From NCBI GenBank assembly GCA_965206645.1, contig CBDBKE010000004.1:288001-352000 (forward strand): 64,000 nt of DNA, written 5' to 3'. A model generated the notes under the pieces. It saw only the letters and a program-made list of their open reading frames with translations. It ran no database searches and was not told the DNA's origin. The position numbers were made by a program, and so were the translations under genes. The DNA is from Terriglobia bacterium. GTDB taxonomy: Bacteria > Acidobacteriota > Terriglobia > JAJPHL01 > JAPKYU01. Position 1 is the stretch's first letter, and every line of letters starts with the position of its first letter. Below are positions 1-4,645 of the stretch, piece by piece.

Positions 1-669
1 CCGGTCCTCATCCAGGCTGGCGGCGCGCGGCAACTGCTGATCTGGCATCCTCAGGCGCTCGCCTCCCTGGACCCGGCAACCGGCAAGGTTTACTGGGAGC
101 AACCCTTCAAGGTTCGCTCCAGTCTCACAGTCGCAACTCCGGTTCGGAGCGGGTCGCGCCTGCTGGTCTCTTCGTTTTACAACGGCAGCATGATGCTGGA
201 ACTCAATCCGGCCAAACCTCGCGGCCGCCTGATCTGGAAAGGCAAAAGCGACAGCGAGATCAAAACCGACGGTCTGCACGCGCTCATTTCGACTCCGGTC
301 GTAGCCGGGGACTACATCTACGGTATCTGCAGTTACGGCCAATTTCGTTGCTTGAACGCCAAAACCGGTGAGCGCATTTGGGAAACCCTTGCGGTGACGA
401 AAGAACGAGCCAGATGGGCTGCAGGGTTTATCGTTCGCCACGGGGATCGCTACTTCATTAACAACGACCGCGGTGAGTTGATCATTGCAAAGTTGTCGCC
501 CGCAGGGTATCGGGAAATCAGTCGCACCAAGCTGATTCAGCCGACGTCCCGCGTCAGCAGGCGTCGCGAACTTGGCGCGGTGAACTGGTCGCATCCCGCT
601 TACGCGAACAAGCACATCTTCGCACGTAACGACAAAGAAATCCTCTGCGCTTCGCTGGAGAAGAAGTAG
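1..669 (+). CDS. PQQ-binding-like beta-propeller repeat protein (5'-truncated by window edge)
   Basis: Frame 1 open from base 1 (PVLIQAGGARQLLIWHPQALASLDPATGKVYWEQP); repeated LDPATGKVYW / LNAKTGERIW propeller motifs; C-terminal WSHPAYANKHIFARND typical of the family. Confidence 0.8.
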   Translation, partial: PVLIQAGGARQLLIWHPQALASLDPATGKVYWEQPFKVRSSLTVATPVRSGSRLLVSSFYNGSMMLELNPAKPRGRLIWKGKSDSEIKTDGLHALISTPVVAGDYIYGICSYGQFRCLNAKTGERIWETLAVTKERARWAAGFIVRHGDRYFINNDRGELIIAKLSPAGYREISRTKLIQPTSRVSRRRELGAVNWSHPAYANKHIFARNDKEILCASLEKK

Positions 670-672
670 GGG

Positions 673-695
673 CCGCTCCCTCACGATCGCGGCTC
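673..695. repeat. REP-like short extragenic element (CCGCTCCCTCACGATCGCGGCTC)
   Basis: Lies just after a stop codon; resembles from memory an extragenic REP-type unit of Acidobacteria/Planctomycetes; single copy in window. Confidence 0.3.
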
Positions 696-722
696 GTCGG
701 GCGCGGGTGGCTCAATGAAATT

Positions 723-1464
723 GGGTCCCGAGTGACCTCTCGGGCAAGCTCTCCTCTTCCGTCTCGACTACGATCCCCCGAACGTCCGTTCCCGGTTCTC
801 CCGGGATAGGCGACTGAAGCTCCGCGTGCGCTCTTCCCCGATTCCGCTCGTCGTCGACGCTCGATCTTCCTGCCTTGCGACAGAAAGGCACCGAAACCAG
901 GGTTGCCGCGTACGGTATCCCCGACCCTTACTCGGCTGAAACCTTGCGACCCCAGCCTTTCACAGCCGGATATTCTCCTGTCGATCCTTCCCGAAAAACC
1001 TCTTCAGCTCCCCGGGTTGGCGTCCAAGGGTCCTCCGGTCCGACCCTCCTCCCGACCTTTCGATCGGGATTTAGGCCCCCAGTGGTTTCCCTGGCTATCC
1101 CTGCCCCGCGCCTTGCAGCGGGGTTCGGTGACCGAGCTATCCCTGCAGTTCCAACCCGGCGCCTTGCGGCCCCGAGCCAGCCTGCGCTTCCTGCTCAGTT
1201 CTTCGACGGCGGAGCCTTTCAGCTAACGCCACCGCGCTTCCAGTTCCTCCCTGGGTTTTTCCAGTCGGGTCACCCTTGCGGGCGCTCTGACTGGCCGTCC
1301 GGGATTTCCCCTGGGTTCCTGCCGGCCCGCAATTACTTGCGAGCCAGTCGTCCACAGGTTCCCTTCAGGTCCTTCTGATCCCAACCTTGCGACTGAGATC
1401 AGTTGTTCGGGATCCGCAATCTTCAGCAGAATGCTTAGCCTGCCTTCCAGATCTCTCGGAACCC
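723..1464 (-). ncRNA. Candidate large structured non-coding RNA (~740 nt), family unassigned
   Basis: About ten GNRA-capped hairpins that pair fully only on the minus strand via G.U wobbles, e.g. 1401-1376 UGAUCUCAGUC-GCAA-GGUUGGGAUCA; 1347-1322 CUGGCUCGCAA-GUAA-UUGCGGGCCGG; 887-866 CUUUCUGUC-GCAA-GGCAGGAAG; 1069-1050 UCCCGAUC-GAAA-GGUCGGGA. 5' GGGUUCCGAG (1464-1455) pairs with 3' CUCGGGACCC (732-723). Upstream promoter; no credible CDS. Confidence 0.7.
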
Positions 1465-1471
1465 GGGCGTC

Positions 1472-1500
1472 TTTTTACTCTTCGCGCAAGAACGAGTCAA
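1472..1500 (-). promoter_or_regulatory. sigma70-like promoter for the candidate ncRNA
   Basis: TTGACT (1500-1495)-N17-TAAAAA (1477-1472) with an A/T-rich UP-like tract upstream (1501-1525); predicted start ~1464-1465 coincides with the terminal helix. Confidence 0.55.
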
Positions 1501-1748
1501 GAATTTTATTCTCTTTCTTTTCAACACGTAAGAAATCCGCAGGCTTCTTCGTGCAGCAATGCAATCACGGCTTTGGCAAGCTCTGCCCGGAGCGGCAGAG
1601 TCGCCCGGTCCAACCTGATGAAACCCGCGCCAGTCATGGCTCTTGCGCTCTGCACCGTCGTGCAGCAGAACGAGCTAGAACAGAAGATTCCCAGGATGTT
1701 CAGCTATGCCTAGACTGGACCTGACAGTGAGTTAAGAAATGCGTCGGG

Positions 1749-2780
1749 CTAGCGAAGTTCTTCCATGATCTCGTCCAGCACCTCTTTGTTTGGCCGGACG
1801 CTGTCTTCGGGCAGAGAGGCGAGTGGTGCGTCCACCATGTTCAGTAAATCCAGAAAATTCTTTTGGCGGGTTTCCAGATAGAGCAAACCCGTGAAGATGT
1901 GCCCTGTCTGCTGCGATTCCAGCAGGGCCCCGAGCGCGCCAGACTTGCTGGTGGGATCGTAGTCGTGGCCGAGCTTCTTCAGCACCACTCGCGAGCCGTC
2001 GTGCATCTCGACCTCCGTCGTTTGGCCGGGCTCATAATCCACGTCGATCTCTTTATAGGTTGGAATGAAGTCAATCTCGTGCAGCGGCTCCTCGTGCTGC
2101 TTCATGTAGGAGTAGCTCTTGGTTGAACCCTTGTGGTCGTTGAAGGCGACACACGGGGAAATGATGTCCAGCAGGATGGCGCCGCGGTGGGAGGTGGCCG
2201 CCTTCAACAGGGCCAGCAGTTGCTTCTTGTCGCCGGAGAACGAACGGGCCACGAAAGTGGCACCTAACTGAATCGCCAGGGCGCAGCAGTCAATCGTCGG
2301 CAGGTCGTTGACGGCCCCGCTCTTCAGCTTCGACCCTGTGTCGGCGGTGGCCGAGAACTGGCCTTTAGTGAGCCCGTACACGCCGTTGTTCTCGATGACG
2401 TAGATGATGGGCAGGTTGCGGCGCATGAGGTGGACAAACTGTCCGATGCCGATCGAGGCGGTGTCGCCGTCACCGCTGACCCCGATTTGAACCAGGTTGC
2501 GATTGGCCATCGCCGCTCCGGTCGCCACAGAGGGCATCCGGCCATGGACGCTATTGAAGCCGTGCGAGCCTTGCAGAAAGTAGGCGGGCGTTTTACTGGA
2601 GCAGCCGATCCCGCTGAACTTGGTTACCTGGTAGGGGTCGACCCCCAGGTCGTAGAAGGCGTCGATGATGCGCTCGGAGATGGCGTTGTGGCCGCAGCCG
2701 GCGCACAGTGTGGTCTTGCTGCCGCGGTAGACGGCCAGCTCCAACCCGACTCGGTTCAGTTTCTGAGGCGTGGCGCTCAT
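1749..2780 (-). CDS. 2-oxoacid:ferredoxin oxidoreductase subunit beta
   Basis: LCAGCGH, GIGCSS, HGR, TPP-binding GDGD...ENNGVYGLTKGQFS motifs; overlaps alpha-subunit stop. Confidence 0.95.
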   Translation of the reverse strand: MSATPQKLNRVGLELAVYRGSKTTLCAGCGHNAISERIIDAFYDLGVDPYQVTKFSGIGCSSKTPAYFLQGSHGFNSVHGRMPSVATGAAMANRNLVQIGVSGDGDTASIGIGQFVHLMRRNLPIIYVIENNGVYGLTKGQFSATADTGSKLKSGAVNDLPTIDCCALAIQLGATFVARSFSGDKKQLLALLKAATSHRGAILLDIISPCVAFNDHKGSTKSYSYMKQHEEPLHEIDFIPTYKEIDVDYEPGQTTEVEMHDGSRVVLKKLGHDYDPTSKSGALGALLESQQTGHIFTGLLYLETRQKNFLDLLNMVDAPLASLPEDSVRPNKEVLDEIMEELR

Positions 2781-4645
2781 CTTGCCGCTGCTTTCTGCTC
2801 GGCGGGGATTCCTTCCTGGGCGAGGATGCCGTCGGTCACGCTGCGGGCATCCACCGGGAGGCCGTTGTAGTGGCGAATGCTGCGCAGCCTCTCCACGTTG
2901 CCCAAGGCCAGGTCAAGCCGAAGCAGGTCGTACATCTGGCCGTCGCGGTTCTGTTCCACCACGTAAACGCGCCGGTGGCTGTGAACGAACTCCTTGACTG
3001 CGTCGGTAAACGGGTAGCCCCGCAGGCGCAGGTAATCGGTTTCCATGCCATGCTCAGCGCGAAGCTGGTCGCGTGTTTCGACGATGGCCCAGTGGGTGGT
3101 GCCAAAGGCGATGATGCCCACCTCCGCACCATGCTCGTCCGCCTCCGCAGCTGGCACCATCTGGCGCGCGGTTTCGAACTTGCGGGCCAGCCGGTCCATG
3201 TTGTCCTTATAGTCAGCGGAGCGCTCGGTGTACTCGGCATTCTCGTTGTGGCCGCTGCCTCGAGCAAACCAGGCGGCGCGGGGATGACGCGTACCAGGCA
3301 GTGTGCGGTACGGTATGGCGTCGCCATCCACGTCCTTGTAGCGCCCCCATTGCTTCACTCTGTCCAAGTCTTCTGCTGAGAGGACCTTGCCCCGCCGCAG
3401 GGACTTGGCGGGATAGGGAAACGGGTCCGACATCCAATTGTTCATCCCCAGGTCCAGATCACTCATGATGAACACCGGCGTCTGCAGCTCGTCGGCCAGA
3501 TTGAATGCCTCCTGGGCCATGGCAAAGACTTCGTCGACCGAGCACGGAAACAGCATCACGTGTTTGGTGTCGCCATGGGAGAGGAACGCAGTAGACAGAA
3601 TGTCGCCTTGCATGGTGCGGGTGGGCAGGCCGGTGGAAGGCCCGACGCGCTGGATGTCAAAGATCACCGCTGGCAATTCCACGTAGTAGCCTAGACCGAC
3701 GAATTCCGACATCAGTGAGATTCCGGGACCGGAAGTGGAGGTCATGGAGCGAGCCCCGGCCCAGCTGGCTCCTAGAACCATGCCGATGGCGGCAAGTTCA
3801 TCTTCCGCCTGAACGATGGCGAAGGTGGCCTTGCCAGTTTCCGGGTCGGTGCGGTAGCGCTCCATGTACTGCCCCAGGGCCTCGCATAGCGACGAGGAAG
3901 GCGTAATGGGGTACCAGGTGACTACCGTGACGCCGGCAAACATACAGCCGAGCGCCGCCGCGGAGTTCCCATCAATGATGATCTTGCCCCGGGTGGCGTT
4001 CATTGACTCGACCCAGTAGGGGTCGCGCTTGGGAAGGTTCTGTTCGGCGTAGCTGTGGCCGACCTTCGCGGCGTTCCAGTTGAGCTCGGCGGCCTTGGCC
4101 TTCTTCTTGAACTGCTTGCGGAGTGCCTTCTCGACCTGGTCTATGTCAATGCCCAGCAGGCGCGCGACCACCCCGTCGTAGATCATGTTCCGGACCAGCC
4201 TGCGGAGCTTGGCGTCGGGGCAGCAGGTAGCCACCAGCTTGCCAAAGGGGACTGGGTAAAACACCAAGTCGTCGCGTAGCTGGTTCAGGTTCAGCGGTTC
4301 GTCGTAGACGACGGCGGCGCCTGGCGCCAAGCCTTGAACGTCTTCTCTGGCTGTTTCCTGGTTCATTGCCACCAGGAAATCAATTTCCTTCTTGCGTGCG
4401 ACGTATCCATGTTTGTTGGCGCGGATGGTGTACCAGGTGGGAAGCCCAGCGATATTGGAGGGAAACAGATTCTTGCCGGAAACGGGCACGCCCATCTGGA
4501 AAATGGCGCGCAGCAGGACCATATTGGCCGTCTGGCTGCCGGAACCGTTCACGGTGGCGACCTGAATACTCAGGTCGTTAATGATGCGGTCCTGCTGAAG
4601 TTGCTGAAAGTCGGCTTCGCGTGGGACGGTCGCCGTGGTGGACAT
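2777..4645 (-). CDS. 2-oxoacid:acceptor (ferredoxin) oxidoreductase subunit alpha
   Basis: NGSGSQ, YPITPSS, QAEDELAA, TSGPG, QRVGPSTGLPT motifs; ATG at 4645 with GGAGAAGG RBS; extended -10 TGCTATAAT at 4691-4683. Confidence 0.95.
   Translation of the reverse strand: MSTTATVPREADFQQLQQDRIINDLSIQVATVNGSGSQTANMVLLRAIFQMGVPVSGKNLFPSNIAGLPTWYTIRANKHGYVARKKEIDFLVAMNQETAREDVQGLAPGAAVVYDEPLNLNQLRDDLVFYPVPFGKLVATCCPDAKLRRLVRNMIYDGVVARLLGIDIDQVEKALRKQFKKKAKAAELNWNAAKVGHSYAEQNLPKRDPYWVESMNATRGKIIIDGNSAAALGCMFAGVTVVTWYPITPSSSLCEALGQYMERYRTDPETGKATFAIVQAEDELAAIGMVLGASWAGARSMTSTSGPGISLMSEFVGLGYYVELPAVIFDIQRVGPSTGLPTRTMQGDILSTAFLSHGDTKHVMLFPCSVDEVFAMAQEAFNLADELQTPVFIMSDLDLGMNNWMSDPFPYPAKSLRRGKVLSAEDLDRVKQWGRYKDVDGDAIPYRTLPGTRHPRAAWFARGSGHNENAEYTERSADYKDNMDRLARKFETARQMVPAAEADEHGAEVGIIAFGTTHWAIVETRDQLRAEHGMETDYLRLRGYPFTDAVKEFVHSHRRVYVVEQNRDGQMYDLLRLDLALGNVERLRSIRHYNGLPVDARSVTDGILAQEGIPAEQKAAAR

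Follow-up and report, generated by a model that had tools for sequence, protein, structure and literature searches.

The window analyzed here, a 64-kb stretch of DNA from a Terriglobia bacterium, opens with the C-terminal part of a gene for a PQQ_2/BamB-like beta-propeller protein (1..669, plus strand; Pfam PF13360, E 4.9e-13). The next annotated neighbor encodes, on the minus strand, the TPP-binding beta subunit of a 2-oxoacid:ferredoxin oxidoreductase (1749..2780; PF02775, E 1.5e-24). Between these two genes, outside both of them and overlapping no annotated gene, the minus strand from 1464 to 723 carries a stand-alone gene whose product is a non-coding RNA of 742 nt. It runs from GGGUUCCGAG to GGGACCC (exact ends predicted), with the beta-propeller gene convergent to it and the oxidoreductase gene upstream. 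The sequence-only reading of this DNA had noticed a structured non-coding RNA in the gap at 723-1500, and our analysis confirmed that observation. It had further interpreted the locus as a stand-alone large ncRNA in the size class of OLE, GOLLD and ROOL, an interpretation supported by a length of 735-810 nt in 32 distinct full-length copies from relatives and by a gene anatomy of its own. The minus strand is called the transcribed one because the fold, the promoter and the U-rich tail all agree on it.

Promoter, closing helix and 3' end

The promoter that had been proposed from the letters of the window consists, on the minus strand, of TTGACT (1495..1500), a 17-nt spacer, TAAAAA (1472..1477) and 7 nt leading to the GGG at 1464, and this arrangement is conserved in the relatives. 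The columns of the -35 hexamer are invariant in alignment A1, and TTGAC stands at a fixed distance (±1) from GGGUUCC in all 36 distinct upstream regions. The -10 hexamers of these regions follow the family pattern TAnAAn, with TACAAA in 11, TAAAAC in 8, TAAAAA in 4, TATAAC in 4 and other forms in the remaining 9. Directly upstream of the -35 hexamer lies an A/T-rich, UP-element-like tract (1501..1517, minus strand); over the 24 nt preceding the -35, the mean A+T content of the 36 regions is 70%. Immediately beyond it, about 55 nt before the start, we noted a box reading TTGAAAA (1518..1524, minus strand), with TTGAAA found at that distance in 29 of the 36 regions and TGAA in 33. This box could be an UP-element subsite or the site of a regulator.

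The RNA's first 15 nt are joined to its last 15 nt by a closing helix, P1. The pairing of GGGUUCCGAG (1464-1455) with CUCGGGACCC (732-723), first suggested on the window copy alone, is kept in the relatives, where it corresponds to helices 2-3 of the consensus, with 92-95% of the cells paired. The 5' strand of P1 (1449..1464, minus strand) comprises 1464-1455 and 1453-1449, with GGUUCCGAGAGAUC at least 90% conserved, and its 3' strand (723..738, minus strand) comprises 738-734 and 732-723. As an end-to-end duplex P1 has a folding energy of -20.8 to -25.4 kcal/mol in each of 32 copies. A local hairpin at 727-744 that had been thought to compete with this helix is indeed there in the window copy, yet the 32 copies do not keep its shape.

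The U-rich tail AAUUUCAUUGA (712..722, minus strand) sits directly after the 3' strand of P1 and marks the presumed termination point. In 31 of 32 copies the first 10 nt beyond the RNA include at least 5 T, the remaining copy running to the end of its contig, and the tail is weaker in the window's genus than in other genera. When the 3' end is folded locally, some of the final 6 nt are paired in 25 of the 32 copies, and local 3' hairpins could act as terminators in place of P1. A strict sigma-70 consensus scan of 600-1800 returned no promoter, missing this one since its rule requires the -10 hexamer to end in T, and a strict terminator scan of the same interval returned none on the minus strand. 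The promoter and terminator calls thus rest on conservation.

Conserved secondary structure

The minus strand is rich in purines, as had been remarked (60.5%; A 23.8%, G 36.7%). To follow up the suggestion that folding energy be compared with shuffles on both strands, we folded the segment 715-1470. The minus strand reached -360.9 kcal/mol against -300.5 ± 8.7 kcal/mol for 20 dinucleotide shuffles (z -6.94), none of which was as good, whereas the plus strand in the same test gave a z of -1.01, with 2 of 20 shuffles as good. A consensus derived from 47 copies contains 215 pairs in which 91.5% of the cells are paired, as against 82.7% in shuffles and 33-48% when the partners are slid by 1-3 columns. 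Double changes, that is compensatory changes on both sides of a pair, were seen in 100 of the 215 pairs, compared with 27-37 in the slid controls, and not one of 500 shuffles reached any of the five covariation measures. Homologs with compensatory changes, the absence of which would have told against an RNA, thus exist. The window copy forms 199 of the 215 pairs, and because 35 of these are G.U, its stems need to be read as minus-strand RNA, which is the argument that the sequence-only reading had made from plus-strand C/A mismatches.

The secondary structure conserved in this manner is closed by three nested helices and contains several multi-helix junctions as well as hairpins whose loops stay GNRA. 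A search for additional covarying helices, including pseudoknots, revealed no tertiary contacts; its eight candidates were rejected, as all of them overlap columns already paired in the consensus.

Ten GNRA-capped hairpins had been listed for the window copy, and nine of these are recovered by folding the single sequence, by projecting the covariation-supported consensus onto the window copy, or by both. They have GCAA loops at 1387-1390, 1276-1279, 1164-1167, 1113-1116, 944-947 and about 875-878, GAAA loops at 1217-1220 and 1058-1061, and a GUAA loop at about 1333-1336. The tenth, a GAAA hairpin at 1299-1314, found no support and was rejected: both of its arms sit in long-range helices, and helix 13 is 96.7% paired and shows double changes in 4 of its 7 pairs. 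The GNRA class is kept at four loops while their letters vary. On the minus strand these are the GCCCGCAAGGG hairpin at 1272..1283 (GNRA in 47 of 47 copies), the hairpin at 1109..1120 (46 of 47; GAAA 12, GUGA 11, GCAA 10, GGAA 7, GUAA 4, GCGA 2), that at 941..950 (47 of 47; GAAA 24, GCAA 21, GUAA 2) and that at 1054..1065 (39 of 47). The stem at 941..950, helix 32, is 98.7% paired with double changes in 4 of 8 pairs, and that at 1054..1065, helix 28, has double changes in 4 of 5 pairs. It would appear from these alignments that at the four loops the class, rather than the individual letters, is under selection.

The most conserved part of the RNA is a core domain (1072..1202, minus strand; alignment A3), which holds GAAGCGCAGGCUG, GGAACUGC, ACCGAACC, AGGGA and GAAACC. 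This domain served as the basis of model R1, which has 59 matches in the collected loci. Outside the core, the junction GGAACCUGC (1354..1362, minus strand) has its GGAA unpaired, and its CCUGC pairs with GCAGG at about 973-977 to form helix 10, which is paired in 100% of the cells and shows double changes in 2 of 5 pairs. A conserved GGAGAAGAUC, reading GGAGAAUAUC in the window copy, is found at 969..978 (minus strand), with AGAAGA unpaired between two long-range helices. A likeness between GGGAACCUG.GG and the 3' hairpin of 16S rRNA was dropped since simple arithmetic places it at chance level.

Other parts of the molecule differ between copies. The window copy has a single GCCCGCAAGGG hairpin module, and some relatives have two or three, with extra modules in G007b, L155, L157, L194 and L195 (alignment columns 220-310). 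At 1214..1223 (minus strand; alignment A4, columns 358-380) the window's subgroup has a GAAA-capped hairpin, and the other subgroup has at this site a short stem around an invariant self-complementary AUCGAU. AUCGAU never varies within its subgroup. It is the only hint toward homo-oligomerization that we noted in the sequences, and no self-complementary loop is common to the whole family.

Distribution, expression and relation to known families

Of the 11 genomes in the window's own order, 9 contain full or split copies of the RNA, and it is present in most, possibly all, members of this one small order. Each genome has one locus, with synteny kept within the genus, and a locus has one to three copies, often arranged in tandem with a repeat period of 1070-1188 bp (about 1.1 kb), each with a promoter and U-run of its own. 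Searches with the core model returned none in 140 genomes from other orders of the class and none in a further 150 from the phylum. A single motif scan recovered 43 metagenome contigs carrying the RNA, and identity to the window copy goes down to 57% among the copies compared. The core motif has no match in 2.9 million viral contigs, nor was there a match in 50,697 phage records and 72,556 plasmids. An invariant 15-mer from the 5' end occurs in at least 118 stretches in 596 Gb of genome contigs; a profile search of 118 of these loci (L025-L142) found none to be related (best E 0.2), and such matches are uninformative because the motif is too short for a collection of that size. Six contigs that at first resembled divergent relatives sharing only the core (L159, L166, L167, L169, L174 and L196) were rejected as contig-end fragments or chimeras and represent no wider family; L166 is a chimera with coding-like sequence.

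Expression is indicated by contigs from environmental RNA libraries. The stretch was found in seven rows recorded as RNA, from 4 studies, and RNA-library contigs cover 727-1465 in three RNA runs belonging to three studies. A 701-nt contig from a fourth run is identical to the window and spans 765-1465, and a single RNA run yields 2031 contigs at an identity of at least 90%. It is the fold, promoter and U-tail that assign the strand. In two metagenome contigs the RNA is fused, with orientation preserved, to 23S rRNA or to RNase P RNA, and such chimeras are expected in assemblies of abundant stable RNAs; taken together, these observations are suggestive of an abundant RNA. In four runs the bins 501-700 and 1501-1900 have a contig depth of 0 and the other flanking bins of at most 2.2, and the summed depth on 701-1500 reaches 6.8e5 (X12), 7.8e3 (X17) and 228 (X19); contig depth does not measure the RNA level, and uncovered parts give neither level nor transcript ends. 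Runs X1-X3, X5-X11, X13-X16, X18 and X20 were left aside as regards habitat and level, and X21-X24 contain almost none of the RNA's sequence words. Contig pieces stop at 1465 (X4) and at 1450 and 727 (X17, both loose ends), positions that were not taken as transcript ends, and X12 has a loose end at 1457, the letters of which resemble a sequencing adapter. A circular or permuted form was considered and rejected. The contig L194 fuses a 3' end of the RNA to an interior site, but the two parts belong to distinct variants that are 89% alike, and no such joint occurs in the RNA runs examined; L194 is hence regarded as an assembly chimera.

The RNA matches no known family. The 4227 models of Rfam 15 include OLE, GOLLD, ROOL, raiA, HEARO, RNase P, tmRNA, 6S and SRP as well as group I and II introns, Acido-1 and Acido-Lenti-1. 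None has a match at gathering score anywhere in the 64-kb window, and a scan of 600-1800 by E-value gave best matches with E 2 or worse, so that the database check that could have ended the case for novelty left it standing. When 21 contigs of relatives were scanned, the only hits were to the non-family parts of the two chimeras, which matched 23S rRNA and RNase P. The earlier impression that the locus bears no signature of RNase P, tmRNA or an intron agrees with these results. The genome encodes a canonical RNase P RNA (G000:C4:880648-881039, 299.7 bits) and a tmRNA (G000:C4:127045-127398, 185.8 bits) elsewhere, and therefore the locus is neither of these. The sole match to a group II intron has 15.5 bits (E = 2) against the D1-D4 model, which has a gathering score of 32. 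A match to 6S RNA (RF00013) was found neither in the genome nor at the locus, where the consensus is a 742-nt multi-junction fold. A literature search returned no description of the RNA, though an earlier mention in the motif lists of comparative-genomics papers is possible. The suggestion of a possibly undescribed class is upheld within these bounds.

Likeness to other large RNAs and possible roles

With a length of 735-810 nt, no conserved ORF, 100 covarying pairs, and its own promoter and U-run, the RNA is a large ornate orphan bacterial ncRNA, a descriptive kind that we define by a length above 500 nt, absence of coding, extensive covariation-supported structure, an independent transcription unit and a function that is not known. 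To our knowledge, only a few bacterial ncRNAs of more than 500 nt combine a conserved, intricate fold with the lack of a known function, namely OLE, GOLLD, ROOL and a handful more. The present RNA seems to add a new family to the large ornate RNAs, among which raiA may also be counted. Such large RNAs, once solved, have revealed unexpected biology, including RNA-only cages and membrane-bound RNPs. For a computational find the support is unusually strong, comprising the 100 covarying pairs, a sharply defined promoter and end, duplications in several lineages and presence in RNA libraries. The host lineage is uncultured or poorly studied. A length of about 740 nt and a compact fold rich in GNRA loops make the RNA a promising target for cryo-EM. 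It also provides a clean case for testing if a long RNA can terminate intrinsically through a helix formed by its own two ends, and its entry in RNA family databases would allow metatranscriptome reads now unassigned to be named.

OLE, from Bacillota, is alike in being stand-alone, roughly 600-750 nt in length and highly structured with many conserved nucleotides. The sources consulted describe it as exceptionally highly expressed (PMC3413148), as forming a homo-oligomer (PMC12286853) and as working with the partner proteins OapA and OapB (PMC7936274). The window RNA differs from OLE in phylum, has no sequence or structure match to it (Rfam 15), and has no conserved neighboring gene that we could see, whereas OLE has OapA and OapB as described there; tandem gene copies and the end-to-end helix with its U-run are features of the window RNA in this comparison. 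ROOL and GOLLD, which are described as assembling into RNA-only homo-oligomers (PMC12286853), share with it a large size and ornate structure, and by analogy their oligomers could be a model for a particle made of RNA alone. The window RNA has no Rfam match to either of them. ROOL and GOLLD are often found in prophages near tRNA genes, whereas the window RNA is chromosomal, shows synteny at the genus level and lacks matches in the phage, viral-contig and plasmid collections. The raiA motif RNA, which is likewise an abundant structured RNA with a function that is not known, is much smaller and found in other phyla, and the window RNA has no Rfam match to it.

Our preferred reading, to which we assign a probability of about one half, is that the stand-alone conserved gene produces an abundant architectural RNA, which serves as a scaffold for proteins or as a self-assembling particle. 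The RNA would act in trans and in stoichiometric amounts. Its purine-rich conserved junctions and GNRA loops may lock it into a compact particle, in which a constant core would be decorated by variable peripheral hairpins. By analogy with OLE, ROOL and GOLLD, the particle might be a scaffold for proteins or a multi-copy assembly of RNA only. The end-to-end helix together with the U-run would constitute the terminator, potentially coupling release of the transcript to completion of its fold. A bolder form of the idea, which we consider quite unlikely, envisages a giant RNA-only machine, the copies of which would join through GNRA contacts and, in one subgroup, an AUCGAU kissing loop, with paralogs as subunits, P1 as a terminator releasing folded molecules, and abundance in soils, sediments and sponges. 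If this were true, the RNA would be the first known of a class of giant ornate RNAs. Its copies, each folded around an unchanging purine-rich core, would build a homo- or hetero-oligomeric particle with the diverged tandem paralogs as its different subunits, and that particle would rank with the lineage's most abundant transcripts in those habitats.

An architectural role has to be weighed against other jobs for an abundant RNA. CsrB/RsmZ sponges and 6S RNA are abundant, stoichiometric, trans-acting RNAs, and the window RNA shares with them unpaired purine-rich GGA segments, through which it could titrate an RNA-binding protein or RNA polymerase. In line with this, each copy carries roughly 39 GGA motifs, of which the consensus leaves about 10 entirely unpaired; the presence in RNA libraries and the multiple gene copies fit a stoichiometric role, and the lack of an RF00013 match in the genome could leave the 6S niche open. 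However, the GGA count is close to what a composition of 37% G and 24% A leads one to expect, CsrA (PF02599) has no match in the window's genome, G000, which is 97.9% complete, and GGA-centered hairpin loops, the hallmark by which CsrB/Rsm RNAs are recognized, are absent, the loops being GNRA or other and the GGA lying in junctions. Furthermore, the long-range nested helices and junctions point to a globular multi-domain fold and not to a string of equivalent binding hairpins, nor does this fold resemble 6S RNA, a roughly 180-nt rod with a central bubble; the window RNA is about 2 to 4 times longer than CsrB/RsmZ and 6S. We therefore regard titration as fairly unlikely. A large catalytic RNA with the conserved junctions as its active site is doubtful to much the same degree. 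Size, the GNRA-rich build and the conserved unpaired GGAACCUGC, GAAGCG, ACCGAACC and GGAGAAGAUC do recall large ribozymes, but the sole specific lead is the non-significant group II intron domain match, and no ribozyme or intron model of Rfam 15 matches. The genome has its RNase P RNA elsewhere, and flanking exons, an intron-encoded protein and processing junctions are wanting, with but one contig joint, of depth 4.9. The multiple gene copies and strong promoter also suggest a stoichiometric over a catalytic job.

The setting of the gene bears on the remaining alternatives. In the window's genus, and there only, the RNA adjoins the oxidoreductase gene, lying downstream on the same strand, as would a long 3' UTR of that operon; other cis-acting forms would be a leader and an RNA that regulates a neighbor in antisense. 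Such readings are very improbable in view of the RNA's own promoter, conserved in 36 of 36 copies, the promoter and U-run on every tandem copy, and its separation from all genes. The neighbors, moreover, vary among genera, and the next downstream gene is mostly convergent. No conserved partner or neighbor protein gene was seen among the loci examined, where the neighbors named are CpsB, TPR/PMT, a TonB-type outer-membrane protein, DUF507 and PEP-CTERM. CarboxypepD_reg/outer-membrane barrel proteins are also among the neighbors of the RNA loci. The change of genomic place between genera, the tandem duplications and the varying number of GCCCGCAAGGG modules might instead recall a mobile or defense RNA, such as a retron or DRT template, a transposon guide RNA or a degenerate group II intron. 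This too is very improbable, as the loci examined have no adjoining gene for a reverse transcriptase, transposase or nuclease, the viral, phage and plasmid collections gave no match, and there is one locus per genome with synteny within the genus. Finally, stop-free frames of 101-186 aa overlap the RNA in the window copy, which might raise the question of a small protein gene. The view that the locus has no associated ORF nevertheless holds: the four overlapping ORFs contain no Pfam family, across 33 copies the longest open frame does not stay in one reading frame or on one strand, indels of 1 and 2 nt distinguish close relatives, and the substitutions are pairwise compensatory. A field of DNA palindromes or repeats is excluded because the fold is strand-asymmetric and its pairs include G.U, and the chance that the locus is not an RNA gene is negligible.

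Fold and architecture of the minus-strand RNA

For the minus-strand RNA at 715-1470 the predicted folding energy is -360.9 kcal/mol, whereas 20 dinucleotide shuffles average -300.5 +/- 8.7 kcal/mol (z -6.94); the plus strand of the same stretch has a z of -1.01. This agrees with the sequence-only reading, which had singled out the purine-rich minus strand as the source of a large structured RNA. The RNA strand is 60.5% purine. Nine of the ten GNRA-capped hairpins that it had listed are present, while that at 1299-1314 is replaced by two covariation-supported long-range helices. Of the 215 consensus pairs, the copy in the window can make 199, including 35 G.U pairs. The structure therefore belongs to a minus-strand RNA and not to DNA palindromes, as had been argued earlier from the same kind of pair.

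A nine-sequence RNAalifold prediction contained 198 pairs, and double changes were seen at 62 of these. For an alignment of 47 sequences (A4), the consensus was derived from 33 full-length, non-chimeric rows, with 14 rows excluded at that step and all 47 counted. It comprises 215 pairs in 36 helices and is 91.5% paired across the 47 sequences, as against 82.7% for shuffles and 33-48% when partners were slid by 1-3 columns. Changes on both sides were seen in 100 pairs (922 cells) versus 27-37 pairs in the slid controls, and none of 500 shuffles reached any of five measures. Given that relatedness inflates shuffle tests and that the structure was derived from the same sequences, the slid control and the count of distinct pair types are the fairer guide, and both are also clear. 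The alignment shows an RNA fold conserved through compensatory change. A simple covariation screen for additional helices, pseudoknots included, yielded none that passed.

The ends of the RNA are joined by three nested closing helices, which are followed by one hairpin and a fourth long-range helix. The inner part consists of two 3' domains and a large central domain (~1362-969) that encloses a conserved core (1202-1072). The strongly conserved runs are mostly junctional, namely GGUUCCGAGAGAUC, GGAACCUGC, GAAGCGCAGGCUG, GGAACUGC, ACCGAACC, AGGGA, GAAACC, GGAGAAGAUC, GAUAC and CAACCCUG. Four hairpin loops retain the GNRA class with varying letters (in 47, 46, 47 and 39 of the 47 copies). The periphery is more plastic: the GCCCGCAAGGG hairpin is present 1-3 times among the relatives in A4, and one peripheral hairpin is a short tetraloop stem in some copies but grows in others into an arm carrying 29-31 nucleotides that are unpaired or extra. 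At A4 columns ~358-380 the subgroup of the window has a longer, GAAA-capped hairpin, and the other subgroup, which includes the genomes G007, G008 and G010 (for example, contig L019:6365-7181), a short stem with AUCGAU. This self-complementary motif never varies and could be a candidate site for kissing-loop dimerisation.

Transcription unit and locus

The gap containing the RNA is bounded by a PQQ_2/BamB-like beta-propeller gene on the plus strand, ending at 669, and by a minus-strand gene (1749-2780) encoding a 2-oxoacid:ferredoxin oxidoreductase subunit, the TPP-binding beta subunit. None of the four ORFs overlapping the gap that were tested contains a Pfam family, open frames are not constant in position across 33 copies, and 1-2-nt indels separate close relatives. 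The shifting frames and indels show that the region is non-coding, in keeping with the earlier failure to see an associated ORF.

The promoter proposed earlier, with a start at ~1464, belongs to an arrangement kept in each of 36 different upstream regions: the distance from TTGAC to GGGUUCCGAG is constant (+/-1), and TTGAC is followed by 17 nt, a TAnAAn-type hexamer and then 7 nt. TTGAC is preceded by a tract with 70% A+T and, in 29 of the 36 regions, by a TTGAAA box. On the minus strand of the window these elements correspond to 1500-1495 (-35), 1477-1472 (-10), 1517-1501 (A+T tract) and 1524-1518 (TTGAAA box), which would place the start at or adjoining G1464. A strict consensus promoter scan did not accept this -10, so conservation is the basis for calling the promoter. 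Downstream, in 31 of 32 copies, the closing helix ends in a 3' strand that runs directly into a U-rich tract. The helix that was thought to close the whole molecule recurs as an end-to-end duplex of -20.8 to -25.4 kcal/mol in 32/32. The shape of the local 3' hairpins varies among these copies, and the local fold also pairs part of the last six nucleotides in 25 of them. We infer the RNA ends and the transcribed strand from these features and the fold; the end-to-end helix would serve as the terminator stem, unless local 3' hairpins take that part.

The gene is repeated in tandem every 1070-1188 bp, with up to three copies per contig, in G004, G007, G008 and many metagenome contigs, each with its own promoter and U-run, and the paralogs are 87-97.5% identical. 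Flanking genes vary by genus: oxidoreductase and beta-propeller genes in the genus of the window, TonB-type barrel, CpsB and TPR/PMT genes in a sediment group, and DUF507 and PEP-CTERM genes in G007/G008; the downstream gene is mostly convergent. Taken together, the RNA gene is its own transcription unit. In sediment-type contigs (L182, L160, L165, L175 and L180) we also noted short tandem repeats of a heptamer, either (CGGCTTT)n or (CAGTTTT)n, right after the U-run, with unit numbers differing between copies.

Relatives and presence in RNA libraries

The window's own order comprises 11 species genomes, and searches at the DNA and profile level identified relatives there, with full-length copies in G000 (the window's genome) to G004, G007, G008 and G010. 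The copy in G005 is divided between two contig ends (L023:7100-7429 and L024:5353-5425), the outcome expected of collapsed tandem copies; G006 (71% complete) and G009 (77% complete) yielded no copy. With a covariance model built on the 132 best-conserved positions (R1), all copies found in the order are recovered at E <= 2e-19. It matched none of 140 genomes from other orders of the class or 150 other genomes of the phylum, both samples scored with strict filters, so this negative result holds for the genomes covered. A core motif of 23 bases matched 43 contigs in one metagenome scan and no viral contigs. The 32 distinct full-length copies are 735-810 nt long, and the lowest identity to the window's copy among those compared is 57%. 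The homologs with compensatory changes on which the ncRNA call had been made to depend thus come from the order itself and from metagenomes.

The RNA is expressed, being present in RNA libraries. It was found in 20 listed runs from 12 studies, 7 rows of which (4 studies) are recorded as metatranscriptomic RNA-Seq. When compared with window 1-3000, contigs from three RNA runs of three studies cover 727-1465; contig depth and uncovered flanks in these runs are not usable as evidence. One RNA run has 2031 contigs at at least 90% identity, and a fourth run, whose kind is a guess, has just one contig, 701 nt long, which matches window positions 765-1465 without a difference. Two metagenome contigs join the RNA in the same orientation to 23S rRNA (L157) and RNase P RNA (L173). 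Such chimeras are typical products in assemblies of abundant stable RNAs, and the shared orientation (2/2) faintly hints at the transcribed strand. By eye, the 5' flank of the RNA at L163:797-825 resembles a tRNA anticodon arm, and if it is one, L163 would be a further chimera with an abundant RNA. At L194:330-470 the 3' end of one variant, after two U, is joined to about position 45 of another (89% alike); we rejected a circular or permuted form in favour of an assembly chimera, as there are two variants and the joint is absent from the runs compared.

Identity and possible function

The window encodes a conserved, expressed, independently transcribed and highly structured RNA. No Rfam 15 family matches it in the window or the relatives' contigs, and no description was found in Rfam 15 or in full-text searches of main articles, in line with the suggestion of a possibly undescribed class. 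RNase P RNA and tmRNA are ruled out, being encoded elsewhere in the genome. No 6S RNA (RF00013) was detected in G000 (97.9% complete), which may reflect sensitivity, as the model matched only 5 of 14 control genomes. In its probable way of working, the RNA is closest to the large ornate orphans: OLE is highly expressed (PMC3413148) and protein-associated (PMC7936274), GOLLD, ROOL and OLE form homo-oligomers (PMC12286853), and raiA equals rRNA in abundance (PMC12968392). The covariance-model match defining each of these families fails here, so the RNA is a member of none of them; we class it as a new family among the large ornate orphan bacterial RNAs.

The promoter looks strong and of the UP-element type, the gene has been duplicated in several lineages and the RNA occurs in RNA libraries; together these suggest a stoichiometric job, as opposed to a catalytic or regulatory one. 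A constant core rich in junctions, conservation of GNRA as a loop class and a variable periphery suggest that the RNA folds compactly in three dimensions, with loops docked onto helices. These two properties lead us to prefer an architectural role, as a protein scaffold or as an assembly of RNA alone, to which we assign a probability of about 0.5. A protein sponge is rather unlikely, and a sponge for CsrA does not apply in G000, which has no CsrA gene; a ribozyme is slightly less probable again. A cis element acting on a neighbouring gene is highly improbable, given the RNA's own promoter in 36/36 regions, neighbours that change with genus and a mostly convergent downstream gene. We hold an RNA of a mobile element to be just as improbable, since viral contigs, BLAST searches of phage and plasmid collections and the neighbouring genes gave no sign of one. 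A feature that is not an RNA has a negligible chance, and the remaining probability belongs to explanations not thought of.

Metagenome contigs L196 (25-1144) and L169 (1-1117) carry a second, GC-rich sequence joined to a core fragment of the RNA. The two versions are 76% alike over ~1.13 kb; no Rfam family reaches its gathering score on this sequence, and G000 contains nothing that matches it. The plus strand has a z of -4.10 versus -1.19 for the other strand, with many tetraloop hairpins, and some other organism may be the source of what is possibly a further large structured RNA.
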